DNA from: an uncultured Nitrososphaerota archaeon
GTDB lineage: Archaea; Thermoproteota; Nitrososphaeria; Nitrososphaerales; Nitrosopumilaceae
DNA length: 64,000 nt
Reading direction: 5' to 3'
Assembly (NCBI GenBank): GCA_963824385.1
Contig: CAWGPD010000003.1
Location: 96,001-160,000 of the forward strand
Position numbers and translations under genes: made by a program. Positions 12,617-45,572 of the stretch are shown piece after piece. A model generated the notes under the pieces. That model was not told the DNA's origin, made no database searches, and saw nothing but the letters and a program-made list of their open reading frames with translations. Every line of letters begins with the position of its first letter. Position 1 is the stretch's first letter.

Positions 12617-12799
12617 ATGAGGTATGTAACACAATGGTACAGACAGGTCATGGGATTATCGCCTAGAAAGAAAAAGATTCTGTTAATCTGCCTGTGGTGT
12701 GTTGCGCCTATTGAGATGGGAGTTATTACAGGTGCATTTTACCTAGGAAAGCACTTGCATCAGAAAAGTATTGGATTACCTGTTCAAATTAGTCAGTAA
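12617..12799 (+). CDS. Small membrane protein
   Basis: 60-aa ORF with one hydrophobic segment. Confidence 0.5.
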   Translation: MRYVTQWYRQVMGLSPRKKKILLICLWCVAPIEMGVITGAFYLGKHLHQKSIGLPVQISQ

Positions 12800-12823
12800 G
12801 TCTTAGGGATAATCTTTAGCGAG

Positions 12824-13401
12824 TTAGTGCAATGGAGGAATCAACCAGTGCAAAACCTCGGGAGATGGAATATTCAAGCCGTAGATGATTAATGGAATTG
12901 CAGTACTTGTAAGAAGCACACCTGCTACTAATCTGATAATTCGTATTGGTATTTTCTTAACAACTCCTAATCGTAACAAGCCAATGATTAGTCCTATTGC
13001 CACAAAGAATCCAGTAGAGCACTGGTTATCTCAATGAGACTAAATGTAGCCAGTGCAACAGAGTTTTCAACTGCCTCTATCATTACTATGTAAAAGTATG
13101 CAATTTTGTATTTTGCGCCATCATCTTCATGTTCATCTTCAAAAAATTCCTTAAACATTGTGCCGCTAAAAAACAGCAATCCTAACCCTAATGCTATCTC
13201 AAGTAGATTAATTGGTACAAACCCTGCGATTTTTAGAAAGACAAAGTACAGAATTACTCCTATCAACAAACCAATAATTGTAATCTTGATGGTCTGACGT
13301 AATCCTATTTTACTTGCTGTTCCTATTCCGACTAGAACTTGTTCTCCACCTTCAACAAAGATGTACTTGAATGATGTGAAAAATACGATTAATTGAAACA
13401 C
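12824..13401 (-). CDS. Membrane protein with duplicated ExxE motifs (COG4280/FTR1-like), frameshift at about 13015
   Basis: FVEGGEQVLVG and MIEAVENSVAL; the next frame continues GFFVAIGLII...KKIPIRIIRLVAGVLLTSTA...LIPPLH. Confidence 0.65.
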
Positions 13402-13473
13402 ATGATTGTAATCGTTGTTTGTCTATAATATCCAAGCTTTATTTTAAATCATAAAATCCAGAAATTTCAATTT

Positions 13474-15018
13474 GTGAGAATTTCCAAGTCTACTGTAAAG
13501 AGAGTTTCTATAATGTTTGCTACAACTATTGCAGTTTTGGTAATATGGTTTGCCGTATATATTCCAGAATTTGAAAAAATCCATACTGACTACCAAGTAT
13601 ACGTGGAACAAGAAGGTCAAGACCAAGTTGCAAATGGTGTTGGAGCTGCACTATCGCAACCATTCAATCTTAGGGAATCATTAATTCAAAAAGTAACTGA
13701 TTCCAATGGCGAATTTATGACAATCTCATCTGTAATTAACGGCGTAAGAAGTGATAATGGACAGGTAATCTTTCATTCTGAAAAACAGTATCAGGTAAAT
13801 GCCTATACTAGAACATATCAGAATATGCCAACAAAACAATTTGCATTCAAACCCGGAGTAGAAAAACATGATTATGAATTTTATCACCCGCTTGTTTTAG
13901 GAGACGCTCCACTAGTGTATAAAAATACAGACACAATTAATGGTCTTCAAGTGTATGTCTTTCAAGCACAAACACACGATGTGGATCTTACAGACGCATT
14001 TCCAAAATATCCTGGTGTAAGAGTGCTCTCTGATACCATCTCAACTTTCTGGATAGAGCCAGTAACAGGAGATCTGATTAAATTTCAAAAGATCTGGAAT
14101 GACCATCAGGTAATAGACAACAAGAAAATATCTTCAATGGAAAAGGGTTCAAAACAGACTACAGATTATTCTGTTTTTATTTTATCTCAGACAGCCAAGA
14201 CTAAAATCGATAACATAAACTTTAACAAAAATGTGATTCCTGCATTTTTGGTTTCTCTAACAATTGGGTTGAACATAATTTTCATTTTAAGAAATAGGCT
14301 AAAACTCTCAAGTGAAATGATGCTCAAAAATGAAAAGCTAGTGGCAGTTGGAAACTTGGCAGCAAGAGTATCACATGATTTGAGAAATCCGCTCTCAGTC
14401 ATAAACGCAGAGGTGGAGATAATGGCACTTCGAGGTCCTAAGGATGAAAAAACCATGTCTAGGATAAATCGATTAAAGCGAGCAATTGAAAGGATGGACA
14501 GACAGATAAACGGAATTTTGGATTTTGTCCGGGAAAAACCATTAACAAGTGAATGGATGTCATCTAAACTTCTAATAGATTCAGTTCTTAGGAGCATCAC
14601 GGTTCCTAGTGGACTACAAATTGTTATGCCAAATCAAGATGTGCAAATATTTGGAGACGTGGTACAGCTTGAAACTGTCTTGTCAAACATTATTACAAAT
14701 GCAATTCAAGCAATAGGAAATACTGGCAAGATTATCATATCTACTGAAGAGACACAAGATCTAACAATACTTAGCATATCTGATTCAGGTCCGGGTATAT
14801 CTGAGAGTGATCTTCCAAAAATATTTGAGCCTCTATTTACTACAAAACAAATGGGAACTGGTCTTGGTCTATCTAGCTGTAAAACAGTTATAGAAAACCA
14901 CGGTGGAAAAATCATAGTAAAAAACAACCCTACCACGTTTATCATTCAATTGCCTAAAGTAAAAGAAGAGTTTGAAAAATTAGTAATAAAAGGACAGAAT
15001 AATCTTAAAGAGATTTAA
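13474..15018 (+). CDS. Sensor histidine kinase with DUF3068 (PorA-like) extracellular domain
   Basis: TM, VEKHDYEFY/INGLQVYVF/WIEPVTG, TM, SHDLRNPL, NIITNAIQA, SDSGPGI, GTGLGL. Confidence 0.88.
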   Translation: MRISKSTVKRVSIMFATTIAVLVIWFAVYIPEFEKIHTDYQVYVEQEGQDQVANGVGAALSQPFNLRESLIQKVTDSNGEFMTISSVINGVRSDNGQVIFHSEKQYQVNAYTRTYQNMPTKQFAFKPGVEKHDYEFYHPLVLGDAPLVYKNTDTINGLQVYVFQAQTHDVDLTDAFPKYPGVRVLSDTISTFWIEPVTGDLIKFQKIWNDHQVIDNKKISSMEKGSKQTTDYSVFILSQTAKTKIDNINFNKNVIPAFLVSLTIGLNIIFILRNRLKLSSEMMLKNEKLVAVGNLAARVSHDLRNPLSVINAEVEIMALRGPKDEKTMSRINRLKRAIERMDRQINGILDFVREKPLTSEWMSSKLLIDSVLRSITVPSGLQIVMPNQDVQIFGDVVQLETVLSNIITNAIQAIGNTGKIIISTEETQDLTILSISDSGPGISESDLPKIFEPLFTTKQMGTGLGLSSCKTVIENHGGKIIVKNNPTTFIIQLPKVKEEFEKLVIKGQNNLKEI

Positions 15019-15063
15019 TCAATTTCGAACAAAAAAATAAAAATTTGGGAAAATATCATATGA

Positions 15064-15530
15064 TTAGCAATATGATGAAAAAAACAATTTCTGCTCATGC
15101 ACATAGTCTGAATCTAGAGCACCCACAATAACTACTCCCATCATCCATGGGTGAAGGTTGTCAAAGTATGGATAAACACCCATTCTATCAAAAAAATAAG
15201 AAAACTTTTGACCCGGTTCAACTACTCCACTGAACAATCCAGCCGGTTTATTGTCGGGATTTCCATTTGTAATCATGTGAACGTTATAATCAAGGTTGAA
15301 CCAAGTTACTGTACCACCTGGAATTATAGTAAGACAAGGCTGAAAACAATCAAAACTGCATTCAGTGGTAGTTATTACTACCTTAGCAGATGCTAGATTG
15401 GGTAGTTTTTGCTGTGTCTGGTAATGATTATGCCATGACAAATCAAGAGTTGCAGCATTGGCAACAGATGGTAAACATAAGACAAGTAAAAGTACTGATA
15501 CTAGAATTGTACTTGATACTAATTTTGAAT
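15064..15530 (-). CDS. Secreted cupredoxin/plastocyanin-like protein (start uncertain)
   Basis: GGTVTWFN.D...H, FSYFFDRMGVYPYFDNLHPWMMGVVIV; in-frame signal peptide upstream of the called ORF (VSVLLLVLCLPSVANA). Confidence 0.78.
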
Positions 15531-15680
15531 TAGACGTGATTACATATTGGCATTGACTTAGATAAACGGTTCATAGATTCTCAAAAATAATTTCCAACAA
15601 TTATGGCACAATATTATTCTAGTAATAAACAGAATTATAACAAAAAATGCTTAATGGTCAGGAAGCCGTATAGATATCCT

Positions 15681-16165
15681 ATGGGATTGGTGCTTGATAG
15701 ATCACCCCAAAGATGAACCATACAAGAAAGTAGACGAGACAGATGAACTCATAGTGGATGTGTTTGAAGGAATTATCAGATCTAAGCGCATTACAATGGA
15801 AAATATCATGACACGCGATGTTATAGCATTGGATCATACCAAAACCGCACATGATGCAGCTGTAGCCATGATGGAAAAGAAAATTGGGAGTGTCATAATA
15901 ACAGCATATGGAAGACCCTTTGGCATTGTTACAGAAAGAGACTTGGCGCGTCTGGTGGCATTTCTAGATATTCCTGCCAAGAGTCTGATGCTGAGTTTTC
16001 TTGCATCAAGACCGTTAATTTATGCAAGATACAACTCAAACAATCCAAGAGGCATCTGATATCATGGGAATACACCACATTGATCATTTACCGATATTAG
16101 AAAATGACGAGATTGTTGGAATGGTTACAACAAGTGATCTAGCAAAGTATTTGGTTTGTGCTTGA
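15681..16165 (+). CDS. CBS-pair protein (extra bases at about 15698 and 16029 relative to its paralog)
   Basis: Closely matches 27072..27554 at DNA level; IMTRDVI, IGSVII, GIVTERDL, IDHLPIL, VGMVTT. Confidence 0.82.
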
Positions 16166-16362
16166 AGAGAACTGTTTGCAATGACATGATATAACAAGTT
16201 CTAAAAACCAACTAGACAGTATTTCATGACTAGGAGTTTGCTCAAAAGCTTACACACTGTATTTTAAATATATTTTCTAATAATTTGGCGCATGACTCAC
16301 AACGATGTGTGGAATTCAAAAAGTGTGATTCCAACTATATTCATTGAGGGATTCAAGTAAAA

Positions 16363-16494
16363 ATGGCAATTTTTTATCTAAAACTCAAATGTTCATTTTG
16401 TGGCTATGATGAAACAGAGATAATAATGTCAAAATCTGCATTTTCACCAATCAGGGCAATATGCATGAAATGCAAAAAACATTTCGAGTACTAG
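16363..16494 (+). CDS. Zinc-finger micro-protein (43 aa)
   Basis: Manual translation: MAIFYLKLKCSFCGYDETEIIMSKSAFSPIRAICMKCKKHFEY. Confidence 0.6.
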   Translation: MAIFYLKLKCSFCGYDETEIIMSKSAFSPIRAICMKCKKHFEY

Positions 16495-16540
16495 TTTTTT
16501 ACTTTCAGTAAATTAGTTTGGCTCAAACATGTTATAGTTT

Positions 16541-16557
16541 CAAGTCTTACATGACTC
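16541..16557 (+). repeat. Copy of the dispersed AGTC-N6-GACT boundary motif
   Basis: CAAGTC-TTACAT-GACTC. Confidence 0.6.
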
Positions 16558-16635
16558 TAACCTTTGTATTTAGATTTATGAAAATTTCTTAATTTTTTAA
16601 AAAACAATTGAAACGAAATGTACTTGGTGTTAAAA

Positions 16636-17499
16636 CTAGTACCCTCGTTTATCAAGCCAGTCTGATATGATTTTGTTTGCAAGCTCATTTGGATGTATAT
16701 CTTTACGGCGTGATTGTACCAATAGTCCATGAGTCTTTCTTTTTGATAACCTTACTGAAACATTCTGTTGTAATGCAAGTGATCTTGCCTTTTTCATTAT
16801 TTTATTGTGTGATAAATTTGGATTATATCCTAAAACCTTGAAGTATCGCTTTTTTGTTTGTGGTTCAAGTTCTGATATTTGATGTGCGATCTTAACTGCT
16901 TTTGAAATATCTGGAATAATTTGATACAACTTTGTTGCGCTATCCCTTGAGAGTATCTTTGGTACAAGTTCTTTTAGCTTGTCTGGTACTCCTGCAAAAC
17001 CGTAATACTTCATGAATGTTGACATTGCAAGTCCCAATGACTTTGCAGCCTTTGACTTACCCATCTGTTCTGCCAAAAACGCACATGCTTCAGCCATATC
17101 CTTTACATTCATGTTTTTGCGGTGAATATTTTCAATAACAGAAGCTGCTTTTGCATCAGGGGTATCATATTCTGTTTTTCTAGTCAAAACCAATACAGGA
17201 ATTTTTTTTGCACCCAGTCTTTTCAGTGCAGCCAATCTACGTTGTCCTGACATCAAAAGATACATGTTTCCTTCTTTTTGCACCATTGGAGGATTTTGCA
17301 GCCCCTCGGTTTTGATTGACTTTGCCAATTCTGATATTCCTTCTCGGTCAAGCTTTCTTGCCTGAGCCTCTTTCCAAACCTTGATCTGTTTTATCGGAAT
17401 TTCCTTTAAGCGATAAGAAACCCTTGAAGTGTATCGTGTCTTGCCACCAGTCCGTCTTTTGGTGATTCGTCTGATTTTTCTTGTCCTAGCCTTTGCCAA
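16636..17499 (-). CDS. ParB/Srx-like domain protein with K/R-rich N-terminus
   Basis: ELAKSIKTEGLQNPPMV, LLMSGQRRLAALKRLG, ENIHRKNM, followed by an HTH. Confidence 0.88.
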   Translation of the reverse strand: MAKARTRKIRRITKRRTGGKTRYTSRVSYRLKEIPIKQIKVWKEAQARKLDREGISELAKSIKTEGLQNPPMVQKEGNMYLLMSGQRRLAALKRLGAKKIPVLVLTRKTEYDTPDAKAASVIENIHRKNMNVKDMAEACAFLAEQMGKSKAAKSLGLAMSTFMKYYGFAGVPDKLKELVPKILSRDSATKLYQIIPDISKAVKIAHQISELEPQTKKRYFKVLGYNPNLSHNKIMKKARSLALQQNVSVRLSKRKTHGLLVQSRRKDIHPNELANKIISDWLDKRGY

Positions 17500-17669
17500 C
17501 TATATTGTTTGGTTTTAATTTTGTAAAAGGTGAGATGGTTGAATCCAATTCGCTTATGCGTGATGAATAATTAGGTAATTGAGGATCTAATTATCATTTA
17601 AAAATCCATAAAGAACTCTAATCTTTGAATTTTATATGATCTTGACTACCAGTATGTACGATTACAATA

Positions 17670-18026
17670 TCATTTTTCGCTGTGAACTAGTTCTAAAACC
17701 TTGGTTGGAAGTTTGAAAAAATCAATATTTTTTTCAGCCGAGATTAATAGTATCTGACCACTTACTGGGAAGCTCATCAGGATCAAATTCTCTCTATATG
17801 CCATTGAAAATTTTACTGGACCAAACACTTTGTCAAATGCCTTTCGGAGATTTACCTTTAAAGCTAGTTGGAGAAATATCATTTCATTATCTTTTGACTC
17901 TTCAAGTGATAGTAATCCCGGTCTCATTCCGCCTGCAACCAGTCTACCCATTTCACTAATCATGCCTGCAAATCTAATTTTTGAGTCCAACTCTAGAATT
18001 TTCTTGCATAATTGGTCTTTGTCCAT
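17670..18026 (-). CDS. Roadblock/profilin-like protein (DUF6659-type)
   Basis: Close paralog of 10587..10937. Confidence 0.82.
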   Translation of the reverse strand: MDKDQLCKKILELDSKIRFAGMISEMGRLVAGGMRPGLLSLEESKDNEMIFLQLALKVNLRKAFDKVFGPVKFSMAYRENLILMSFPVSGQILLISAEKNIDFFKLPTKVLELVHSEK

Positions 18027-18240
18027 GTCATGTGATGTTCTTTTGAGAGTTCTAAAACATTACGACAGGCATATTTTAGTGAACAATTGGTGAGTAAACC
18101 ATTTTTACTGTATAAAAAACCCATTTGGACAAAATTGGAAATAATTGTTATTTTAGGGGCACAAATGGTATTTGAGAAAACTGATTATATCTGATAATCT
18201 AAAATGACTCTTATATGGCAACTTTAGGTAGAATAATTTA

Positions 18241-18423
18241 ATGCAAATACCGTTTGGACTGATAATTTTAATTGGATGTCTCTTAATTGGAGTCTTCGTA
18301 ATGGCAAATTATCTCCTACCAGATGTTATATGCAAAATGATTCCTCAGAGCACCGTTACAACTCAGATGGGCCAATACAATTCACAAGTGTTAAGCGACA
18401 TATGTTCTGGAATACCCAAATGA
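18241..18423 (+). CDS. Small single-TM protein
   Basis: 60 aa, N-terminal TM, two Cys in the soluble part. Confidence 0.55.
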   Translation: MQIPFGLIILIGCLLIGVFVMANYLLPDVICKMIPQSTVTTQMGQYNSQVLSDICSGIPK

Positions 18424-18460
18424 TATTATGAAAAATTCTGACTGGCTCTAACTATTCCAT

Positions 18461-18477
18461 CAAGTCTTGAAGGACTC
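18461..18477 (+). repeat. Copy of the dispersed boundary motif
   Basis: CAAGTC-TTGAAG-GACTC, overlapping the stop codon of the Lrp gene. Confidence 0.55.
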
Positions 18478-19045
18478 AAACTTTAGATTCGGACTTGCGA
18501 GAGATTGGTTGTGATCTTTTTGCTTTTTGCGAATAACCTCGTTGTCTAAGAAAACGTACTAGTGCTACATCATCTTGTCGTTTTATCTGTGATGATACTA
18601 TTGAGCTTGCAAGCTTTGCAGTGATTGGCTCAAAACGAGTCATGACTTCCTCTCTCAAGCTTTGCAAGTCAGTTTCCATTACCTTAAAAAAATATTCTTG
18701 ATCGCCAATTGTAGAATATGCTTCTATAATGCGTGGTTCTTTTCGAATGTATTCGTGCATTTTTTTAACATCATCCTCTCCAAGTCCTGTTTCAGCACCA
18801 ACATATGCAGAGATCCCAATTCCAAGTCTTGTCCAGTCTAACTCGATCTTGTGTTTGAAAACTTCCTTTTCTTTCATGATTCCTACTCTTTTTGCTATTG
18901 TACGCTGATCAACTTTTAGAATTTCTGCTAGTTGCTTGAACTGTATGCTTGCATCTTTTGCCATGTATTCCAATATCATTAAATCCAATTCATCAGACAC
19001 AAAAATTGGTTCCTTCATATCAATTCTAGTGATATTTGATATCAT
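18476..19045 (-). CDS. Lrp/AsnC family transcriptional regulator
   Basis: DELDLMILEYMAKDASIQFKQLAEILKVDQRTIAKRV HTH; RAM domain (EAYSTIGDQEY). Confidence 0.92.
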   Translation of the reverse strand: MISNITRIDMKEPIFVSDELDLMILEYMAKDASIQFKQLAEILKVDQRTIAKRVGIMKEKEVFKHKIELDWTRLGIGISAYVGAETGLGEDDVKKMHEYIRKEPRIIEAYSTIGDQEYFFKVMETDLQSLREEVMTRFEPITAKLASSIVSSQIKRQDDVALVRFLRQRGYSQKAKRSQPISRKSESKV

Positions 19046-19200
19046 ATTAATATTTTCTTAATGATATTCAGTAACATCAAAGTCTATATCTTTGTATTTG
19101 GATGAAGAGCTGATTACAGATGGATACAAATGTGGATTTGAGAAAATCGATAAAAACGCCAACTATGAATCAACACCCACATTGTAAAAAAAGAATCTAG

Positions 19201-20817
19201 GTGACATATGTGGACATTGTAATACTTCTAGTTGTACTAGCAGGTTCTCTTGGGTTGGCTGTAATTTTTGGCCGATACATGGCAAGGATGATTGTATATG
19301 AAAAACGTCCATTGGAAAAAACATTGGGTAGCATAGAGAACGGTTTCTACAGGATTATCGGTGTAGACAGATATGAGCAGATGACATGGAAACAATATAC
19401 TCTGGCACTAATAGTAACTAATGTCATAGCAGCTGGTTTTCTGTTGGGGGTACTACTATATCAAAACAATCTGCCACTTTCGCCAAAGCCTGGGTTATCA
19501 CTTGATCTTGCATTTAATACCGCTGCATCGTTTATTACAAATACTGATCTTCAACACTATGCTGGAGATCAACAACTATCAATCTTTTCACAGATGGTAG
19601 GATTAATCTTTATAATGTTTGTAGCGCCTGCCTCTGGAATGGCTGCGGCGTTTGCTTTTATCCGAGGTTTTATCAGAAAAGAATTTGGACTGGGAAATTT
19701 TTATGTTGATTTTACAAGAATAATTTTAACACTTTTACTACCAATTGCATTTTTCTCTGCATTGTTGTTACTTTTCTTGGGGGCTCCTCAGACATTAGAC
19801 CCAACAATTACAGTAGGCACACTCCAAGGAGGAAATCAAACAATTACAATTGGACCAGTCGCATCACTGGAATCAATAAAGGATCTTGGAAGTAATGGAG
19901 GTGGATTTTTCGGTGCAAATTCTGCACATCCGTTTGAAAATCCTACTGGTGTATCAAACGTCTTTGAGTGTATCCTTATGCTTGTAATACCATTTTCATT
20001 TCCAATAGCATATGGTCATCTGTTAGGCAAAGGAAGGGGTATCTCCATACTTGCCGCCATGTTAATTGGATTTGGTGTGATGCTTGCTCTAGGGTTATCA
20101 GAACAGAGCGGTCCATCGGGTCTTGAGACACGTTTTGGAAGCTTTGGAAGTACGCTCTTTATGGAATCATCAGTATCATCAAACACTGGATCTGCAAATG
20201 CATCTCTTACTGGAATGTCCCCCAATGCTGTAATTGGATTATTTTTGGGAATGTTTGTCCAGGCAATACCTGGTGCAGACGGTATGGGAATGATGATGAT
20301 GATTATCTTTGTTATTCTTACACTCTTTTTGGTTGGACTAATGGTAGGAAAGACTCCAGAATTTATGAGCATGAAGATAAGCCCAAGAGATATAAAAATT
20401 GCCGCCTTTGTATTTCTGATTCACCCTGCATTGATATTGGTTCCATCGGTATTGGCGTATACTACTGAGAATGCACAGAGTGTTCTTGGAGAACCAACAA
20501 CTCCTGCGACATTTACACAAGTTTTGTATGAATATAGCTCAGCTGCTGCAAACAATGGATCAGATTATCTTGGCACATCTGCAAACACAGCATTTTGGAA
20601 TTGGTCTACGATGGCAGTCATGTTACTTGGACGTTTTGTGCCAATAGCATTGATGTTGGCAATTGCAGGATCGTTTACCCTAAGAGATAGAAAAGAAGTT
20701 GTCGAGCCAATAAAAACTTCAGGTTTTCTTTTTGTTGGCATATTGTCAATCATGGTATTTATTTTAACTGCTCTTACTTTCTTTCCGTTCTTGGTTATGG
20801 GGCCATTTTCAATATAG
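19201..20817 (+). CDS. kdpA: K+-transporting ATPase subunit A
   Basis: FNTAASFITNTDLQHY, SIKDLGSNGGGFFGANSAHPFENP, LMVGKTPEF, YEYSSAAANNGS. Confidence 0.97.
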   Translation: MTYVDIVILLVVLAGSLGLAVIFGRYMARMIVYEKRPLEKTLGSIENGFYRIIGVDRYEQMTWKQYTLALIVTNVIAAGFLLGVLLYQNNLPLSPKPGLSLDLAFNTAASFITNTDLQHYAGDQQLSIFSQMVGLIFIMFVAPASGMAAAFAFIRGFIRKEFGLGNFYVDFTRIILTLLLPIAFFSALLLLFLGAPQTLDPTITVGTLQGGNQTITIGPVASLESIKDLGSNGGGFFGANSAHPFENPTGVSNVFECILMLVIPFSFPIAYGHLLGKGRGISILAAMLIGFGVMLALGLSEQSGPSGLETRFGSFGSTLFMESSVSSNTGSANASLTGMSPNAVIGLFLGMFVQAIPGADGMGMMMMIIFVILTLFLVGLMVGKTPEFMSMKISPRDIKIAAFVFLIHPALILVPSVLAYTTENAQSVLGEPTTPATFTQVLYEYSSAAANNGSDYLGTSANTAFWNWSTMAVMLLGRFVPIALMLAIAGSFTLRDRKEVVEPIKTSGFLFVGILSIMVFILTALTFFPFLVMGPFSI

Positions 20818-20829
20818 TGTGATGGAATC

Positions 20830-22947: not shown

Positions 22948-22952
22948 TATAG

Positions 22953-35042: not shown

Positions 35043-35050
35043 TAAAATAT

Positions 35051-35266: not shown

Positions 35267-35293
35267 GTCTACTTTTAAAATAATATTCGTGTT

Positions 35294-35332: not shown

Positions 35333-35354
35333 TAAAAAATGATCTAGTGAAACT

Positions 35355-36482: not shown

Positions 36483-37013
36483 TTGATTTTATGCATATAC
36501 GTTATATCCATAGGGTGTTTTTTGATGCTTGTTTTTGATTATTGTGTCACATTTCTTATTAATTTGATTACGATTATTGCCACTGTGCTAAAACCATATT
36601 CATCTAAAAAGTTGGTCTCTCAAAATATTGGGAAGAGTAAGGTTTTGATTCAAACTGATTCGTTATTGGAAAAGGGAGTTGAATATTTGGCAATCATTAA
36701 CAAGAAAGGTAGAATTGAAGATGCCATATACAAAAACGACATAAATCTAAATGATGAGAGAAAACAGGTCTTTTTCCTGAGTATTTTACTACACAATTCA
36801 ATGCAGCGTGATTTTGACGAGGAATTTGGGGAAGTTAATTATACCATGGCAGATAGGGGAAATTCAAAATTTGTGGCAGTACCCACACGTGACGGGATTT
36901 TATTTGCAAAATTAGACAAATCACTAGACCCAACTGTATTTATTAAAAAAATTCTTGGAATTCTCAAATTTTCCAACGGAGCATTTTCTATACGAGATGA
37001 GATTTACCAATAA
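36483..37013 (+). CDS. Roadblock/profilin-like protein (true start probably downstream)
   Basis: YLAIINKKGRI, RDFDEEFGEVNYTMADR. Confidence 0.75.
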   Translation: MILCIYVISIGCFLMLVFDYCVTFLINLITIIATVLKPYSSKKLVSQNIGKSKVLIQTDSLLEKGVEYLAIINKKGRIEDAIYKNDINLNDERKQVFFLSILLHNSMQRDFDEEFGEVNYTMADRGNSKFVAVPTRDGILFAKLDKSLDPTVFIKKILGILKFSNGAFSIRDEIYQ

Positions 37014-37134
37014 ATTTTATGCGTTCTTAAAATTTATTCAAATGAGATTGTCTAAAAAAAATTGATTAACAATAAAATTATTTAAAATATATAGTACAAT
37101 TATCTAAATATTTTTTTATAACAAAAATTAATTT

Positions 37135-37182
37135 TTTCAATTAGAGAAATGAGCCACAATTGTTTATAATCTCTAATTGAAA
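37135..37182 (+). promoter_or_regulatory. Operator/TATA element, degenerate copy E, inside a 13-bp inverted repeat
   Basis: TTTCAATTAGAG-AAATGAGC-CACAAT-TGTTTATAA; arms TTTCAATTAGAGA and TCTCTAATTGAAA. Confidence 0.5.
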
Positions 37183-37200
37183 TTACTTGCAAGAACCAAC

Positions 37201-38170
37201 ATGAACGTCCAGCAACAAAACAAAATCAAATCTGACCTGACAAAAAAGGTTACTGCAATTGCATTAGCATCTGTATTGGTTGTATCCTTTTTTGGAGGTA
37301 ATTTGATGACTTTGCAGGCAATGGCAGTTACTGATAATCAGGCTGCAAAACAGACATTACGTCAAACGCTGCAACAAGATCAAACAACATACAAGCAAGC
37401 AGTTCAAGCAGCAGACCTTGCGTACAAGCAAGCAGTACAAACAGCAGATCTTGCTCACTCACAAGCAGTCCAAGATGCAAATGACGCATACAATCAAGCT
37501 GCACAAGATGCAAAATCTGCATACAATACTGTAGTTAGCAGTGCACATGGAAATGCAGCGATAATTGGTTCTGCTATGTCAACAAGAGACCAAGCAATTG
37601 CAACGGCTCAGACTACAAAAATTAATGCAATTGTAACTGCCGATACTACACATGACAAGGCAGTAAATGATGCATGGGTTGCACATGAGACTACAGTCTA
37701 TACATCTCTTGCAACACGTGATGGCAACGACGGAACTGCACAGAGTACATTCTATACCACTATAGGAAATGCTACACTTGCAACTAGAGCCCAGACAATA
37801 GGTCAGGCACATGTTACAGAAGACAATTCCATTTTGCAAGCTCAGAGAAACAAGAATTGCCGCAGTAGAAATTGCCGATGCTACAAAGATTCAGGCAGTA
37901 GGGGCTGCACAGATTGCATATGTTAGTGCAGAGAGCAGTGCTCATGTGACACTTGATAATGCTTACACTACTGATGCCAAGACTTGGAATGCAGAGCAGC
38001 AATCATACTGGAATACAGTAGCTCTACTTGTACAAACAGAAGATAGTGCCATTGCTACAGCCAATGCAAACCAAGTAACTGCAATAGGAAATGCTGATGC
38101 CACAAGAGATCAGGCAATTGATCAGGCTCATGCCACAATGTATGGAGCCATTTCAGCAGCATACCAATAA
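37201..38170 (+). CDS. Secreted Ala/Gln/Thr-rich protein with 11-residue repeats, frameshift at about 37845
   Basis: Signal peptide; YKQAVQAADLA-YKQAVQTADLA-HSQAVQDANDA-YNQAAQDAKSA; continues as ETRIAAVEIADATK. Confidence 0.8.
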
Positions 38171-38222
38171 GCCGACAAAATCGGCTCTCTTTTTTTATTG
38201 TATTGTATAATATGATGTATGA

Positions 38223-38263
38223 TTTTTCATTTTGAGACTTGTGCCTCAAATATAATATATAAA
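38223..38263 (+). promoter_or_regulatory. Operator/TATA element, copy C
   Basis: TTTTCATTTTGAG-ACTTGTGC-CTCAAA-TATAATATA, 31 bp before ATG38282. Confidence 0.7.
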
Positions 38264-38281
38264 ATTCGATATAATATAACC

Positions 38282-38680
38282 ATGAATTTCAGTATTGATT
38301 CAAAAACAAATAAGGGATTGTTCATGGGATTAGTAATCTGTACCTTGGGATCAATCATAGCAAATAGTTCCACATGGACTGTCTCTGCTGATAGTTGTTA
38401 TGCACGTGGACCAAACTTTGATCTGCATGGATGTAATTTTACAAGTGCAGATCTTAGTAATCTAAATCTCTTTGGTGTAAACCTTAGTGGAGCAAATCTC
38501 TTTGGTGCAAATCTCAGTGGTACGAATCTTAGTAATGCAAACCTTCTTGGTGCCAACCTTAGCTATACTGATCTTGCTAATACAGATTTTACTAATGCAA
38601 ACCTTGGTGGTATTAGCTACAATGGATGTATTGGAACACCAATTGGAACACCTGCGCAAGGAACACTGCCAACCTGTTAA
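38282..38680 (+). CDS. Secreted pentapeptide-repeat protein
   Basis: Signal peptide; ADLSN LNLFG VNLSG ANLFG ANLSG TNLSN ANLLG ANLSY. Confidence 0.88.
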   Translation: MNFSIDSKTNKGLFMGLVICTLGSIIANSSTWTVSADSCYARGPNFDLHGCNFTSADLSNLNLFGVNLSGANLFGANLSGTNLSNANLLGANLSYTDLANTDFTNANLGGISYNGCIGTPIGTPAQGTLPTC

Positions 38681-38761
38681 TTAAATTAAAAATCTATTTA
38701 TGAAAATAAATCCTATGGCACATCTCTAGTTCTGATTATGTTATCATGCAAGTATGATTAG

Positions 38762-38806
38762 TTTTTCATTTAGAGACTTGTGCCTCAAATATAATATACA
38801 AAGAAT
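38762..38806 (+). promoter_or_regulatory. Operator/TATA element, copy D
   Basis: TTTTCATTTAGAG-ACTTGTGC-CTCAAA-TATAATATACAAAGAAT upstream of ATG38823. Confidence 0.7.
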
Positions 38807-38822
38807 CACTAGATGAAACATT

Positions 38823-39026
38823 ATGAGATGGCATGATGAAAAGATCTCTTTGCCAAATGTCCCTGCTAGAGTAGATCCGACTATTAAGTACTCATCTGCC
38901 ACTCATTCCCCCAAAAAAACAAAGTCATTGCAAAAAAAGACAGACCAAAAAACACATCACCAACACGAATGGAATATATATTCGAATCGATGGGTGTGTA
39001 ATGTATGCGGTATGAAATATGGCTAA
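38823..39026 (+). CDS. HxH...CxxC small zinc-binding protein
   Basis: HQHEW...RWVCNVCG. Confidence 0.65.
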   Translation: MRWHDEKISLPNVPARVDPTIKYSSATHSPKKTKSLQKKTDQKTHHQHEWNIYSNRWVCNVCGMKYG

Positions 39027-39267
39027 GATAGCAGACTATGACATTTGGTTATTGGTATTAGTGATATTTGTAATAGGACTAACTCCAATATTTTCAGGTG
39101 TTGCCTTTGCACAGATGTATAACGATGCTGATAATCCGGTCGGTTCTATGGCTATTTATGCATGGGGAACTGCAGCAGTTGTTGTTGGTATAACGACAGG
39201 AGTAGGTATCTTGACAATAGTTCGAAAAGTAAATTCCAAACACCATTTGTTAAGAAATGGGTTTTAA
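39019..39267 (+). CDS. Small exported/membrane protein
   Basis: Signal ending AFAQ, second TM, basic tail. Confidence 0.65.
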   Translation: MAKIADYDIWLLVLVIFVIGLTPIFSGVAFAQMYNDADNPVGSMAIYAWGTAAVVVGITTGVGILTIVRKVNSKHHLLRNGF

Positions 39268-39307
39268 CTTACAACTAAACACTTTCATGTTCTTGGGATG
39301 ATTCAAA

Positions 39308-39914
39308 ATGGTAAGTCAGGAATCTCATCAAGACGGTGTTACAAGAAGAGACTTTCTTAAACTGCTTACACTGGAAGTGTTGCTTTAACCTTTACACCAT
39401 TTGTTCCTTGGGGAAAATTTATGCCAAATCCTTCCAATGTTTCTTTGGAGAGAGCCCAGGTAATACTGCCAGATGGAACACAGGCAAATATCAAGACTTT
39501 TCCAAAAAATCACTCTGAGGTTATTACTTATCCAAAATCAGGAGATGCAGTTTTAGATCAAGAGGCATTTAAAAAATGGCAGTTTGTTAGATTGCCAGAA
39601 GAACTTGGTGGTGGCATTAGATGACACAAGTGCTTTTCGAGCATACAGCATGGTTTGTTTACATTTATGGTATTTATGGAAATACTGGCCACAAGAAGGA
39701 AGGAAGAGAGGAGAATGCCCATGTCATGGAAGTATGTATAGCATGTTAAACGGCAAGGCCTTTGCAGGACCAGCTTCTCTTCAGCTCTCCATCCAATGTA
39801 TTGCCTTATCTTTACCTTGAAACTGACAATGATGGGGATTTATGGATAAAACCTGCAGTATGGGACGTCAATGAGAATGGTATAGTTGGATACGGACGTT
39901 TTCTTAAAAAGTAG
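39308..39914 (+). pseudogene. Tat-exported Rieske 2Fe-2S protein with three frameshifts
   Basis: MVSQESHQDGVTRRDFLK; CLHLWYLW and ECPCHGS; ends GIVGYGRFLKK. Breaks near 39371, 39618 and 39785. Confidence 0.75.
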
Positions 39915-39957
39915 AAAATACATTTTCGTAGATTTTGAAAATATTTCTATCAGAAGT

Positions 39958-40506
39958 CTAGTGTACCATTTTAATCAGCCAATGCATGAAATTGGTCCCC
40001 AAAAATACTATGACTGCAGCTTTTACTGTTTTACCAGTTGTCATTGCAATTGTGTACCTCTGAATATTGTATCGTTTGACTCCAGCTATTATTGATATGA
40101 CATCTCCAAATATGGGAATCCATGGGGAGAGAAAAATTATTGTAAACCACCCGTATTTTGTCATCAAGCCAACACTTTTTTTCTCATTTTCTTTTTCAGG
40201 AGTCTTTCTGAGTTTTTTTAACAGTCTTCCATTATAGCCAATGTAATATGCGATATATCCGCCAATTATGGAGCCAATAGTAGATACCAAAAACACGTCA
40301 AGTGGATTTATTCCTTGTAGTAATAATGCAGAAATGGTAAGTTCTGTTGGAATCGGAATGAAACTTGAGAACATTGCATTAAAAAATAATCCCAACAGTC
40401 CAAATTTTATAAATATTGAATCATGTAATGAAGAACTTGTGAATTTATGCAACATTGTAGAATTTTGAATAAAAAGTTCAGTCATCATCTGTATGAATAA
40501 CCACAA
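39958..40506 (-). CDS. DedA/VTT (YqaA-like) membrane protein
   Basis: FIPIPTE, GSIIGGYIAYYIG, PWIPIFGDVISIIAG, GKTVK. Confidence 0.88.
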   Translation of the reverse strand: MWLFIQMMTELFIQNSTMLHKFTSSSLHDSIFIKFGLLGLFFNAMFSSFIPIPTELTISALLLQGINPLDVFLVSTIGSIIGGYIAYYIGYNGRLLKKLRKTPEKENEKKSVGLMTKYGWFTIIFLSPWIPIFGDVISIIAGVKRYNIQRYTIAMTTGKTVKAAVIVFLGTNFMHWLIKMVH

Positions 40507-40705
40507 GGATTATCTAATCTATCTCCTAATTATATATGCAAAATAATAGAATATTCATTTTATAGCTACGAAATTTCTCTACGATTTAACAATTCTAGCA
40601 CACTTGTCTAAATGAACTCATTCCTGTTTGCATCTTGAAAGTAATTTTTGTCATCAACTGATGTTTGTTTTAGTTGATTGCTTCACATTTCTTAATAATT
40701 AATTA

Positions 40706-41152
40706 TTGGTAATGGTTAACATGTTAAAACTTTCTGCAACAAATTATTCAATGTTTGAACAAAATAATAGAAATGAATTTTTATCACAAATTACATCTCT
40801 TTTGGATGCAGGATCTGAATATATTGGAATTATTAGTAAAAATGGAAGATTAAAAGAAGTATTTCGCAAAGAAAGTGACTTGAATTTAACCGAAGATGAA
40901 AAGGAAATGTTCTTCATGTCACTACAACTACATATCACACTGCAGAGTGATTTTGATGGCAAACTTGGGTCGATAAACTATCTGCTAATCAAAAGGCAAA
41001 ACTCTAGATTTGTGTTAACTCCTACATCTGAAGGATTCATTCTGGTAAAACTGAATAAATTAGCAGATCCATTTTTAATTATAAATAAAATTCCGGGAAT
41101 CCTGGATTCTTACAAACAATTTCTTGAAACAAGTATGGGAGTTTGTCCCTGA
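40706..41152 (+). CDS. Roadblock/profilin-like protein (DUF6659-type)
   Basis: YIGIISKNGRL, KEMFFMSLQL, DFDGKLGSINY. Confidence 0.8.
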   Translation: MVMVNMLKLSATNYSMFEQNNRNEFLSQITSLLDAGSEYIGIISKNGRLKEVFRKESDLNLTEDEKEMFFMSLQLHITLQSDFDGKLGSINYLLIKRQNSRFVLTPTSEGFILVKLNKLADPFLIINKIPGILDSYKQFLETSMGVCP

Positions 41153-41355
41153 TGAATATTTATGATAAAAAGTCGGTTCGTTGTTCTCAGTGTGATAGAT
41201 TCATAGGTGAAATTGATGCTGATGCAGTTGTAGTTTTACCAAAATGCGGTAGATGCGCAAATCCAATGCCTGAAGGGGATGACAAGATACAATACATTGT
41301 AAGCAAGTTTAATCCAAATCCTAAAAGTCTAGTACCTATAGATTCTGTCACTTGA
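41143..41355 (+). CDS. Zinc-ribbon protein
   Basis: MNIYDKKSVRCSQCDRFIGEID...PKCGRCANPMPEGDDK. Confidence 0.8.
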   Translation: MSLMNIYDKKSVRCSQCDRFIGEIDADAVVVLPKCGRCANPMPEGDDKIQYIVSKFNPNPKSLVPIDSVT

Positions 41356-41454
41356 TTTTTGAGAAATGCAAAATAGATCTATTTTCTACAGTTATTATCT
41401 AGTCATTAAAATAATTGTAATTTTGTATCTAATTGATTTCATACCCTGTATGGT

Positions 41455-41754
41455 GTGATAAATGAATTGAAACTACAAAGACATGAACGCCGAAATAAAC
41501 TAGAACTCCATTATAGTATATTACATTCAATAATAAAGGAAAGTAAGAGTGTAGATTTTATAAGACCAACTAGAATTCAATTTCTAAGTAATTTGTCATA
41601 TGATACCATGTCAAACCATCTACAGGACCTAAAAGAAAAGAAGTTGATAAATCACTCCAAGGGAATTACCATTACAAAGAAAGGAGAACAATTTGTAAAA
41701 GATTATGAAATAATACAAAAATTAATCAAGCAAATAAGTATTGATTATCTTTAA
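41455..41754 (+). CDS. Archaeal winged-helix protein
   Basis: RRNKLELHYSIL, TRIQFLSNLSY, ITKKGEQF. Confidence 0.82.
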   Translation: MINELKLQRHERRNKLELHYSILHSIIKESKSVDFIRPTRIQFLSNLSYDTMSNHLQDLKEKKLINHSKGITITKKGEQFVKDYEIIQKLIKQISIDYL

Positions 41755-41817
41755 ACTAACAGACATTCACAGTTTATCGCTAAAGTATCATGTTATTAAT
41801 GCTAATTTTGATAACAA

Positions 41818-42216
41818 TCAAGAAGAAACCAGAATTAGATATACAAGCACTATGACTCCAAAGATGACAAGACCGATACTTGCTATGTACATAATGGAAT
41901 GTCTTGGTATGTATCTGCCTACTTCAATATCCTTCTGAGCTTTGAGATAATTTATCAGTGCATAAATTATCAATAAAATTCCAAGACCAATCATACTCAT
42001 ACCCAGTATGGTTGATGATGACTGTGTTGGCAAGTTAGTTGGAATTGTTTGATTTTTTGTTATAATGCTAAATTCTCTAAGAAATAGACTAAATCTTGCA
42101 ACTACAAAACCCAATCCCATGAGGGCTATGCACGTGCGTAACCATGCAAGAAAGGTACGCTCATTTGCAAAGTGTTGCGTAGAATGGTCTGGTTTTTTAT
42201 CTTCAGATGACAACAT
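41818..42216 (-). CDS. YidH/DUF202 membrane protein
   Basis: HFANERTFLAWLRT. Confidence 0.92.
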   Translation of the reverse strand: MLSSEDKKPDHSTQHFANERTFLAWLRTCIALMGLGFVVARFSLFLREFSIITKNQTIPTNLPTQSSSTILGMSMIGLGILLIIYALINYLKAQKDIEVGRYIPRHSIMYIASIGLVIFGVIVLVYLILVSS

Positions 42217-42359
42217 ATGGAACTAATATTTTGAACCTATAAGGTTTAGTTTTCATTTTTAAACTTTTAATGAGTAGGTCAAATAGAATTTATTCTCCAA
42301 CAAATCATGTCATCATAATTCAAGTTATGGCAAAAAATTTACCCACTGGTGTGTAAATG

Positions 42360-42394
42360 AAACAGGAAAAGGAGTTTGTAAGTCTTACAGGATA
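42360..42394 (+). repeat. Copy of the dispersed boundary motif with purine-rich leader
   Basis: AGGAAAAGGAGTTTGTA-AGTC-TTACAG-GATA. Confidence 0.65.
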
Positions 42395-42458
42395 TAACAG
42401 CTTTATGAAAACTCTGAAAATAGAATAAAGTATAAATTTATTGAAACAAAATCAATGC

Positions 42459-43038
42459 ATGGTAAAACCAAAAATTCTTGCATTTGCAGGAAGTACCCGG
42501 GTTGATTCATTTAATAAAAAACTAGTCAAAATTGCAGCTGCTGGTGCAGTCAAAGGCGGTGCAGATGTTACTGTGATTGATCTTCGAGACTTTGCCATGC
42601 CACTTTATGATGGTGATTTGGAACAACAAGAAGGACTTCCTTCTAATGCACGCAAACTAAAGGACCTGATGTTGTCACACCAAGGATTCTTAATTTCATC
42701 ACCAGAGTATAACAGACTCAATATCTGGTGTTCTAAAAAATACAATTGATTGGACATCTAGGCAATCCCAAGGAGAGGAATCTTTGGCATGTTTCAAGGG
42801 CAAAGTCGCAGGAATAATGAGTGCCTCTCCTGGAGGGCTAGGAGGTCTTCGTGGATTGGTTCACGTACGTGCAATTCTTGAAAATATCAGTGTTCTTGTA
42901 ATTCCAGAACAGACTGCAATAAGTAAAGCACACGAAGTCTTCAATACTGACGGTACTCTAAAGGACAAAAAACAAGAGGACCAAGTAAAAAAGATTGGTG
43001 CTAATGTTGCCAAGTTATTGCTAAAATTAACTGCTTGA
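42459..43038 (+). CDS. NADPH-dependent FMN reductase (extra A at about 42716)
   Basis: LAFAGSTR, PLYDGD, SPEYN(S)SISGVLKNTIDW, SASPGGLGG. Confidence 0.9.
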
Positions 43039-43080
43039 GATATTTTAAATTAAAAGCAATTTAGATATAAAAATACAGGT

Positions 43081-43128
43081 AAGAAATAAAAATTTCCAAG
43101 GCGTTTTGTAGCAAGTCTTACAGGATTC
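43081..43128 (+). repeat. Copy of the dispersed boundary motif
   Basis: AAGAAATAAA...GTTTTGTAGCA-AGTC-TTACAG-GATT. Confidence 0.65.
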
Positions 43129-43198
43129 AAATTTTATGATGGGGAAAAGTTCGGTATTGGCATTCAAGGCAATAACAAATGGCTAACCTTAATACAAA

Positions 43199-43370
43199 AT
43201 GCTAGTAGAGGATCGTAACGAAAAATCATATCTGTCCTCGTTGCAGGAAAGAATCTAAATGTCTTAATCCTGAATGTGATGATTATACGTTAAGGTATGA
43301 ATGGTGTCCTAATTGTAGGATCAAGCTTACTAGATACTTGACAGGATGGAATGTAATATCCATAATTTGA
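43199..43370 (+). CDS. Zinc-finger micro-protein (needs one A removed in the run at about 43221)
   Basis: NHICPRCRKESKCLNPEC...WCPNCRIK. Confidence 0.5.
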
Positions 43371-43571
43371 AACTGACTAGATAAAAAAAATTGCAGACTC
43401 GTTCAATTCGGCTCATGCTCTAAGGTTTTACCCTTAGAACACGAAACCGTTTCGTGTTAGTATAGAGTCTGCATAATACATTACGTAATTTGGATTCAAA
43501 AGGTTCTGTTTGTTTAGTTTGAAATAATGTAAGTAGAGAAATATTATAAGAACGTAAGAAAATAGACTGTA

Positions 43572-43856
43572 ATGAGTACTAACTTAAATCAAAACGAGAT
43601 CGCTTTGATCTCATGTATTGAAGTAGTTTTAATGAGAAAAGGTAATGTCAATTATAATCTAGTACTAGCTAGACTAAATGCTCTTTATGGGTGCAAGATG
43701 ATGGATTGCTATGAACACCCCGAATATTTGAAAACTGTCCTAAAGGAGGTGTATGAAGAAAATTATAATTCAATTATAATTGAAATCAAAATGGAATTGG
43801 GTAATTTAGACGCGGAAGAAATAAGTGATTTTATCAATATCATGTTAAAACCATAA
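43572..43856 (+). CDS. Stand-alone NitrOD5-like protein
   Basis: ALISCIEVVLMRKG...LNALYGCKMMDCYEHPEYLKTVLKEVY. Confidence 0.75.
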   Translation: MSTNLNQNEIALISCIEVVLMRKGNVNYNLVLARLNALYGCKMMDCYEHPEYLKTVLKEVYEENYNSIIIEIKMELGNLDAEEISDFINIMLKP

Positions 43857-43867
43857 CATTATACAAT

Positions 43868-43909
43868 AAAAAATTAAGGAAAGGAGTTGTAACGAGTCTT
43901 ATATGGATT
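43868..43909 (+). repeat. Copy of the dispersed boundary motif
   Basis: AAAAATTAAGGAAAGGAGTTGTAACG-AGTC-TTATATG-GATT. Confidence 0.6.
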
Positions 43910-43967
43910 ATCTTCATAGTGACAAAGATTGATAATTACCTTGAAGATTAAATTGATATAAAATTAA

Positions 43968-44255
43968 GTGATAAACATGAACTCAAACCGCAAAAAAACG
44001 ATCAACATATTTGCAATTGGAATAATATTGTTGGTTGCAGTTCCTGAAGTTGTAGGACATTCTCTTTTTGACAAGCCCCATCCTGAAAACTCTTCAGTTG
44101 TTGCCGCAAAGGCCTTTGCAAGCAAGCTTGTAACTAGTCCAGATGCTAGTTCACTATGTCAGATTCAAATTGAGAACGATCCGCCTGGTGCCAAAATTGC
44201 ACGAGTAGCAGGTCTTTATGGACAGTATGGAAATTTTACCTGTAAAACCACATGA
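43968..44255 (+). CDS. Small exported protein
   Basis: 95 aa, signal peptide, two Cys. Confidence 0.6.
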   Translation: MINMNSNRKKTINIFAIGIILLVAVPEVVGHSLFDKPHPENSSVVAAKAFASKLVTSPDASSLCQIQIENDPPGAKIARVAGLYGQYGNFTCKTT

Positions 44256-44317
44256 TTGTTAAAACAAGTTATCTATTTTTAAAATAAAAATATTTGAGGA
44301 AATTCTCTTTTTGAGAA

Positions 44318-45010
44318 TTAGCCTGTTCCAGTACTTGATTTGCATGCAGCCAAAGCGTCGTAGTAAGTAACCTCTTCTCCGTTAATAGTACCATAGTAAG
44401 CTGCCCATGCCTGACCGATGCTTGTCCACATTGTCTCTCTAACTGCTTCGATATTTGCATCCCTTGTAGCAGCTGCACCCCAAATAGAGTGTGCTCTCTC
44501 AGTGGCTTCTTGGTATATCGTTACATAATAGTGAGAGTATGTTGCATCAACGGTATTTGCATGTTGTATTCTATCTGCAGCAATCTTGGCAGGATCTCCC
44601 TTGTCTGCTGCAACTGCAGTCTTCAAGGTCTGTGCGGCTGTTGTTAGATTACTTTTTGCCGATGTGAGATTTGCTTGCTGTTGAGTTTTGTACAAAGACT
44701 GTGCTGCTTGTGCAGCTTGTTGATAGTCTGTCCTGTATTGCTGCTCTGATGTTTGCTCTGTTTGTTTTATCTGCTGTATTGCAGAATCTCGAGCTTGCTT
44801 TGCACTTTGTACTGCTGAGTCGTAGGTCTGTTTTGCATCCGACATACAACTATTGGTAGCCGAATTTGGACTAGTACTGTTAGATGTCTGTGCGGCTGCA
44901 AAATCTAGATGGGCTGTAAAACCAAATAGCAATATGAAAATTATACTTCCAGCTATTGTAGTCTTGAACCCTATTCCTGACTTGCTTTGTTTATCCGATT
45001 TAGAATTCAT
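44318..45010 (-). CDS. Secreted Ala/Gln-rich helical repeat protein
   Basis: Signal peptide; AKQTYDSAVQSAKQARDSAIQQ; resembles 37201..38170. Confidence 0.78.
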   Translation of the reverse strand: MNSKSDKQSKSGIGFKTTIAGSIIFILLFGFTAHLDFAAAQTSNSTSPNSATNSCMSDAKQTYDSAVQSAKQARDSAIQQIKQTEQTSEQQYRTDYQQAAQAAQSLYKTQQQANLTSAKSNLTTAAQTLKTAVAADKGDPAKIAADRIQHANTVDATYSHYYVTIYQEATERAHSIWGAAATRDANIEAVRETMWTSIGQAWAAYYGTINGEEVTYYDALAACKSSTGTG

Positions 45011-45111
45011 GTAATTTATTTTTAAAAAAATTATATATAAGGAATGCGCTGTATTGATACGAAATTACATTGTGAAACAAGTTTTAAATATTATATTTAC
45101 ACGGAATTTTT

Positions 45112-45507
45112 ATGCATTTAAGAACTGTATTATTTACAATGGCAATAATTACCTTTACTACTCTTGCTTTTACAAATATTTCTACATCTATACCGTTTGT
45201 TACCATTCCAGCATATGCGCAACAAACTCCTGGCACAAGTCTACCAAATCCTGCAGACTTGGGTCTTCCAGCTGACAACTCGTCAAGTTCTAGCGCATCA
45301 TCTGACAACTCGACAGACTTGAATGCTCTTTCACCAAGTACTGCAGACTTGGGTGCGGTAAGTACCAATTCAACAAATCCTGCATATACTCAAACAACTC
45401 AGAGTGCAACCGTGCCAGAATTTGGTCCAGTCTCATTGGCAGTACTTGTTGTTTCTGTAATGTCAATCATAATTGTCTCAGCAAGAACAAGATTGAGATT
45501 CTCCTAA
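45112..45507 (+). CDS. Small Ser/Thr-rich PEFG-CTERM protein
   Basis: AYAQ signal, repeated ADLG, VPEFG + TM + RTR. Confidence 0.85.
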   Translation: MHLRTVLFTMAIITFTTLAFTNISTSIPFVTIPAYAQQTPGTSLPNPADLGLPADNSSSSSASSDNSTDLNALSPSTADLGAVSTNSTNPAYTQTTQSATVPEFGPVSLAVLVVSVMSIIIVSARTRLRFS

Positions 45508-45531
45508 TTTTGGACTAGAGAATCTTGAAAT

Positions 45532-45572
45532 AAGAAATTAAGGAAAAAAGTTTTGCAAAGTCTTTCAGGACA
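45532..45572 (+). repeat. Copy of the dispersed boundary motif
   Basis: AAGAAATTAAGGAAAAAAGTTTTGCAA-AGTC-TTTCAG-GACA. Confidence 0.65.

Follow-up and report, generated by a model that had tools for sequence, protein, structure and literature searches.

The cryptic integrated elements of Thaumarchaeota are described as enigmatic in the available part of Krupovic et al. 2019 (PMC6563490), which also remarks that no integron-like platform had been found in the group. For Nitrosotalea elements the same part lists the attachment (att) sequence CCCCGGGCCCG, e.g. for NitDev-E2/E3 and NitNCS1-E1 at the transfer RNA (tRNA) gene tRNA-Arg(GCG). Here we describe an array of short repeated sites in a stretch of 64,000 nucleotides (the window) from an uncultured archaeon of the Nitrosopumilaceae. 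The window is C3:96001-160000 of genome G000 (1.68 Mb, 5 contigs, 86% complete), and the archaeal amoA in it identifies the genome as that of an ammonia-oxidising archaeon. Att cores of its relatives agree with the published Nitrosotalea rows, which suggests that the genome belongs to Nitrosotalea. G000 denotes the genome under study and C1-C5 its contigs; other G numbers are relatives, and the letter L with a number denotes a locus. An earlier note, made from the sequence, had proposed that a quasi-palindromic motif recurring between genes of the window represents cassette recombination sites of an integron- or pdif-like array.

We consider it rather probable that this motif marks module seams in tRNA-anchored islands and serves as a core site for a family of tyrosine integrases that target tRNA genes; these would exchange or remove cargo bounded by TTACAG sites. 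The array fits best among the tRNA-targeting cryptic elements of Thaumarchaeota, as a variant that carries an additional internal site. As in those elements, we found a tRNA-targeting tyrosine integrase, tandem insertion at one tRNA and CBS, UspA and RHH (ribbon-helix-helix) cargo genes, and their att CCCCGGGCCCG equals a core that is reached by the element arm described below. The att rows in the available part of that source are tRNA-type or intragenic duplications only, whereas here a second, non-tRNA core subdivides the cargo; the window also differs in carrying neither an integrase nor a duplicated tRNA end. The tycheposon islands of Prochlorococcus, in the available part of their description (Hackl et al., bioRxiv 10.1101/2020.12.28.424599), are similar in the repeated visits of integrase elements behind a tRNA and in their integrase-less relics. 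However, their seams are partial tRNA copies and their integrase faces inward, while here most seams consist of a non-tRNA core and the integrase gene is directed towards the tRNA. A literature search, mostly without subscription journals, found no description of the site.

The motif is real. Pattern search placed the copies where the earlier note had put them, and their axis, AGTC-N6-GACT, was right. A weight matrix trained on 49 sites, all from other genomes, gave the consensus C-GAGTC-TTACAG-GACTC-AAACCT. We write the core as GAGTC-TTACAG-GACTC(RAAYYT), that is inverted arms around a fixed 6-bp spacer. Iterative training of the matrix on G000 itself drifted into coding sequence, and the other-genome matrix was used instead. 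An 11-6-11 axis centred on CRAGTC was likewise dropped, as the left half is separable and the flanks change at TTACAG. Copies of at least 18 bits, which we call strong, were enriched in G000 (14 copies, as compared with 1, 1 and 1 in three shuffles), and none of the 14 lay inside an open reading frame (ORF) of at least 100 aa. Four strong copies lie in the window, at 43114 (34.7 bits), 16543 (27.2), 27616 (21.5) and 18463 (21.4), while 18 bits were reached in 0 of 60 shuffled windows. The copy at 42381 scored 14.9 bits. Weak cores were found at 34701 (6.3 bits), 45559 (5.9) and 43895 (5.2), the latter two backed by a full A-rich leader. No copy of at least 18 bits lay in the amo and trpS/phe blocks, as had been noted before. 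With up to 3 mismatches, AGTCTTACAGGACT matched 13 times in the window (shuffle mean 5.5; 13 reached in 0 of 100 shuffles). The loose AGTC-N6-GAC was marginal by itself (9 matches vs 3.9; reached in 3 of 100 shuffles). When loci, partly spacer-selected, were scanned blind to the spacer, 62 of 78 arm matches enclosed TTACAG, read in one direction or the other, with at most 1 mismatch.

Orientation of the sites was conserved locally. Among neighbouring sites less than 5 kb apart, in all sequence compared, 48 were on the same strand and 3 on opposite strands. The 14 strong copies of G000 were split between the + strand (11) and the - strand (3), so the proposed same orientation holds within islands and not genome-wide. 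In G000 and G014 together, 14 of the 16 strong matches with a tRNA within 40 kb upstream were on the strand of that tRNA; 7 further strong matches had no tRNA in this distance. Replichore polarity was rejected: single-contig genomes carry strong copies on both strands, and orientation tracks the upstream tRNA instead.

The sites of the window are located in a variable island of approximately 35 kb (11882..46790) anchored at tRNA-Ala(TGC) (11810..11881, + strand, detected by Rfam and ARAGORN). Sequence common to 5 of 5 relatives stops within 20 bp of the 3' end of this tRNA. The conserved block restarts at 46791, as seen in the four relatives with both sides on one contig. The same interval measures approximately 1.6 kb in each of G041 and G009, 7.4 kb in G014 and 12.6 kb in G076. 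In G014 and G076 a core lies within 60 bp of the end of tRNA-Ala(TGC), and the integrase family described below is present at this tRNA in relatives. Rfam detected 3 tRNAs and nothing else in the window, and a relaxed ARAGORN run gave noise only. No element arm, including an attR-side arm, was found in the window.

We compared synteny between G000 and 1.63 of the 1.97 Mb of G014; the last 0.34 Mb of G014 were missing, so that sites and controls are both called non-syntenic too often. None of 13 site-bearing gaps was syntenic, as compared with 474 of 994 other gaps (p = 3e-4). With 8 curated weaker sites added, the values were 0 of 21 and, for other gaps within 10 kb, 51 of 153 (p = 6e-4). Since the sites cluster, these counts are not independent. 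The p-values overstate the effect, because in each pair both members were chosen for carrying the motif, the pairs depend on one another, patterns containing TTACAG were used to collect most loci, and sites are clustered. The expectation that the copies lie at gain and loss breakpoints, as tyrosine-recombinase-type core sites would, was borne out by the synteny comparison and by the flanks, which were re-paired at the core.

In a set of 142 distinct sites, 10 of the 12 left-flank families had more than one right partner and 7 of the 10 right-flank families had more than one left partner. Among 40 pairs alike on one side, likeness broke off between -10 and +16 relative to the spacer start in 31 and further away in the other 9. 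As both pair members hold the motif by selection, the informative part is that likeness extends to the core and ends there. In the cleanest switches (L005 vs C5 1730; L052, L064 and L086 vs L073) the left flank and spacer were kept and were followed by either GACTC or the element arm TTTTTGAAC. Within G000, tracts at C1 43.4-52.2 kb and C5 4.7-13.0 kb are 87-96% alike and include an empty/filled trio of sites: a 1212-bp module lies between two sites at C5 6165-7377, and C1 44932 has one hybrid site. A second tract starts exactly at AGTC.

The motif was linked to element arms through an A-rich leader, L, which occurs in 37 of 60 other genomes of the genus (control matches, 0). Of 92 copies of L, 40 begin an arm, 26 precede a core with the GACTC (T-loop) half, 6 precede a core with an arm, another 6 adjoin a cyclophilin gene, and the remaining 14 are of other kinds. 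The arm is a conserved sequence of about 100-120 bp which begins with L and runs into tRNA 3'-end cores, either CCCCCGGGCCCG (tRNA-Arg, CCCCCG) or CCTGTGGACCCA (tRNA-Val, CCTGTG). Alternatively it ends in CTGTAAGACT, which is the motif read backwards (spacer CTGTAA); in 13 of the 40 arms the end could not be parsed. We did not detect the leader in viral contigs or the arm in 127 genomes of other families. Units of 135 bp with L at both ends had been read as miniature inverted-repeat transposable elements; this was dropped, as the units consist of an element arm joined to a leader-core. Ends of IS6 insertion sequences were rejected too, the three IS6 transposase genes all being distant from the sites. 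At L079:9440-9500 the arm is joined to a GAGCC-CTGCTC pseudo-core, which elsewhere overlaps the stop codon of the integrase itself and suggests a route to integrase loss from elements.

The core arms, GARTC and GAYTCRAAYY, mimic the T-loop of tRNAs, GGTTCGAGTC, a sequence located immediately to the left of the tRNA 3' stretch that the elements duplicate. The spacer itself was in none of the tRNAs parsed (33 of 39 in G000, 30 of 35 in G014), and 0 of 18 matches to T-loop plus spacer in the genome collection lay inside a tRNA. The nearest tRNA to the spacer was tRNA-Phe, whose TTGCCG differs by 2 mismatches and is carried by two sites. Spacer variants TTGCCG and TTACCG at L085:4194, L058:2263 and G000 C4:344277 bridge TTACAG and the tRNA-Phe sequence. 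The 3' sequence of tRNA-Phe is a possible origin of the site. Just 3' of tRNA-Ala, alternating core-like units (arm, 6 bp, arm) occur at L153:12470-12510, L154:18060-18100 and G000 C5:9130-9165; they could be extra binding sites.

The earlier note had placed the recombinase outside the window. A search of G000 with PF00589 gave no match, and a profile of the relatives' integrases identified a gene, missed by Pfam, at C2 315294-316754 at tRNA-Val (E 4.5e-21). The gene looks intact and heads an element at tRNA-Val(TAC) which reaches the contig end. Its family, YxxR, was detected in 43 of 63 genomes of the genus; 23 of 30 loci in relatives lie beside a tRNA, and in the main clade the gene end faces the tRNA. 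Residues R178, K223, Y302xxR305, H332 and Y340 are invariant (R178, Y302xxR305 and Y340 in 17 of 17 aligned proteins). The predicted structure (pLDDT, predicted local distance difference test, 69.5) has archaeal XerA and Cre as best fold matches, and an integron integrase structure ranks 22nd, behind both. NCBIfam gave no integron-integrase match for the one protein searched, from L080. The integrase was not recognised when its sequence was searched against solved structures, and PHROGs gave an integrase match for 1 of 17 family members. The available part of PMC8371274 describes the R...YxxR...Y signature and a gene left intact after integration for pNOB8-type (type II) integrases. Our family shares both, but it differs in being too divergent for PF00589 (most copies) and for the solved-structure sequence search. 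Because Pfam overlooks the family for the most part, counts of such elements are probably too low.

A core was present in 6 of 7 stretches around a YxxR integrase (three known beforehand to carry L). Five elements of relatives combine the integrase with one or more internal cores and with an L arm that terminates in a tRNA core, the 3' end of the tRNA being repeated directly on the side away from the integrase. In a sister genus, 5 of 7 genomes contain 5-15 copies in long one-strand runs, and in two genomes tRNA and integrase are followed by cores on the strand of the tRNA. In most of the other 25 genera within the same taxonomic family we found no copy, or one or two. The YxxR family is likely the enzyme acting on the motif.

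We propose that the integrase would bind the T-loop-like arms and exchange strands over the 6-bp spacer. Since islands at different tRNAs and in two genera have one non-tRNA spacer in common, their internal sites would be compatible with one another. Repeated, nested insertion, together with deletion between co-oriented cores, may have led to the stacks of leader-core hybrids at 42-46 kb of the window. The window array, which has lost the integrase and the island ends and in which several cores have decayed, is therefore probably a mostly inactive record of past events.

Several results weigh against the site-and-integrase explanation. Profile search found no integrase in the island or elsewhere in the window, and the window has no tRNA-Ala 3' fragment besides the gene itself, i.e. 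no island-end duplication. The G000 integrase shares no more than 42-45% identity with the array-linked clade, and no strong core was found in the 5.7 kb after it. The motif-rich genomes G015 and G229 lack the YxxR family, and arrays also adjoin other integrase families (L071, L073, L083). Many relatives have the same cargo genes without sites. Single-base differences in the C1/C5 trio place the switch immediately to the left of the core, and both tracts may be strain variants of a long-read assembly. Strains were compared in 6 runs (contigs only, rare forms dropped; one run may be the source sample). None of the 10 strain joints listed ended at a site, and we detected no circle, back-joint or site-to-site joint. 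A mostly fossil array fits these 0 of 10 joints, and also the modules at 42-46 kb, which were covered in all four runs aligned there. No circular contig was present among 21 metagenome matches.

Integrons have a co-oriented array of sites, each ending a small module, and the array can lie apart from the integrase. Our array is similar in these respects. It differs in the lack of an attC hairpin (84 sites), in cargo genes that face both ways, in the tRNA-targeting YxxR enzyme and in the double-strand layout of the core, and we therefore did not uphold membership of the integrons. Integrons of archaea are the subject of Ghaly et al. (bioRxiv 10.1101/2022.02.06.479319). More doubtful, though conceivable, is an integron-like capture system that does not use attC. 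Here a tRNA-docking integrase would act on T-loop-mimic arms around TTACAG as a second, universal cassette site, and modules of 1-3 genes would be excised as circles and enter any site-bearing island, with the enzyme supplied in trans from visiting elements. Flexible genes are numerous in soil and freshwater ammonia-oxidising archaea and include those for potassium uptake, two-component systems and stress proteins. The site of 16-22 bp, its shared spacer and the candidate integrase provide a marker for island seams and, if active, would constitute a compact recombinase-site pair.

Other explanations of the array have to be weighed against a site recombined by the YxxR integrase. The sites could be passive scars of element ends, with modules lost or re-paired by homologous or slip-type deletion between leader-plus-core repeats of 30-50 bp. 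Several breakpoints run through the shared leader (-12 to -20), as such deletion would predict, and the position of the switch in the C1/C5 trio and the absence of site-to-site joints from the runs point the same way. We nevertheless regard this as unlikely: in the pairs with the cleanest switch the change falls at the right spacer edge, with only the core in common, and passive decay would not account for one spacer kept over islands and two genera. The same site logic could also be served by another tyrosine integrase family (L071/L078, L073 or L083 type), or by several families on common sites. The arrays that adjoin such integrases favour this, as do the many cores of G015 and G229. The five elements that unite YxxR integrase, L arm and internal cores speak against it, and so does the pairing of YxxR and core found again in the sister genus; we judge it rather improbable.

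A regulatory reading, in which a dimeric regulator would bind the 5-6-5 palindrome as its operator and the leader would be a T-rich terminator for the opposite strand, is very unlikely. In its favour, the motif is a palindrome located between genes, the leader is often preceded by a stop codon and is T-rich on the - strand, and core-like units run near tRNA ends. But the 14 strong copies are spread over convergent (4), divergent (1) and both kinds of tandem gene arrangement (5 and 4), in agreement with the previous argument against a simple promoter or terminator. Moreover, the asymmetric spacer is conserved, the sites are co-oriented and no site lies in a syntenic gap. We give hardly any credence to a single-strand hairpin target (attC-like, or like repetitive extragenic palindromes) of an integron-type or HUH enzyme. 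In leader-core copies GAGTTTTGTAG could pair with TTACAGGACTC via G:T, on the top strand only. However, the median folding z-score of the 84 sites was -0.9 for the top and -0.6 for the bottom strand (19% and 11% below -2, respectively), most cores have no leader, and 40 of 92 leaders have no core. Action of host XerA on dif-like sites, by analogy with XerC/XerD on Acinetobacter plasmid pdif modules, is largely refuted. Small modules of 1-3 genes, inverted arms and a 6-bp spacer would suit it; identical spacers recombine in pdif according to the available part of PMC13141974, and archaeal XerA ranks first in the fold search. Yet the archaeal XerA model was below cut-off or unmatched in 5 of 5 genomes, with no match whatever in G000 and single-contig G014. 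The same part of PMC13141974 describes XerC/XerD sites of alternating orientation recombined by host Xer, unlike our co-oriented sites, and the motif arms mimic the tRNA T-loop and are not dif-like.

The individual sites of the island, all on the + strand, differ in their state. At 12798..12813 a module seam carries AAGTC-TTAGGG-ATAAT (matrix score -21). Its counterpart in G076 has an identical left flank, the sequence GAATC-TTACGG-GACAA and a different right flank. The site is therefore a decayed copy, given the better core behind the same left flank, and this weaker copy of the earlier note stood. The one at 16245 (-29 / -14) was unsupported. The core AAGTC-TTACAT-GACTC-TAACCT (16542..16563) has no leader and lies in a gap that is non-syntenic with G014. 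AAGTC-TTGAAG-GACTC-AAACTT (18462..18483) forms the left edge of an AsnC-kdpABC module, which in G076 is flanked on both sides by core-like sequences and has different neighbours. TAGTC-TTACAG-AACTC-GAATCC (27615..27636) has no leader. At 30301..30327, where the earlier note had seen part of the leader, the leader (the end of the element arm) is present and there is no core. An opposite-orientation core candidate of 15 bits lies 180 bp from it, at 30505-30520 (-). The weak core TAGCC-TTACAG-AACCA (34700..34715), also suggested previously, comes shortly after the end of the likeness to G076, at 34645.

The clearest module carries a gene for an NADPH-dependent flavin mononucleotide (FMN) reductase (42459..43038, +; Pfam PF03358 in two pieces). 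The frameshift in this gene is an assembly error, as none of the 4 runs aligned there has the extra base at 42716. The left seam is a partial leader with the core AAGTC-TTACAG-GATAT (42360..42395, +). The match with G041 starts at this core, which in G041 lies directly behind tRNA-Arg(GCG). The right seam is a leader with the best core, AAGTC-TTACAG-GATTC-AAATTT (43081..43134, +), and the match with G003 passes through this core and ends at spacer position +14. In G003 both seams are kept and the context is different; most other relatives have the FMN reductase gene alone in common. Two further stacks on the + strand have a leader and a decayed core, GAGTC-TTATAT-GGATT (43865..43909) and AAGTC-TTTCAG-GACAT (45529..45573). 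Matches to G041 and G076 stop 27 and 45 bp before the latter core.

Strain-level deletions or replacements in the island, none ending at the motif, were found at 13407-15033, where an entire histidine kinase gene is removed, and at 26140-26407 and 39062-39954. In run X6 a contig follows the window from 27618 onward, with 949 unplaced bases before it; we drew no inference from this.

The sequence GGGGTAAACCATTTTT at 31516-31531 of the window equals the terminal repeat listed for casposon NitDev-C2 in the available part of the PMC6563490 supplement. Stretches like it occur at 51235-51280 of the window and at C1 44258-44355, and the leader copies at C1 44363 and C5 5596 have a related stretch in front of them. 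A casposase was rejected as the enzyme, no Cas1 being found in the 86% complete G000. Elsewhere in the window, trpS (52648-53764) and pheT (55271-56908) are split, probably by assembly errors too. A D12-class adenine methyltransferase and an AbiTii-domain gene lie directly behind amoA (5838-7089). A surface-protein-like ORF contains a 129-bp tandem repeat (51473-52258) and has paralogues at C1 198 kb.

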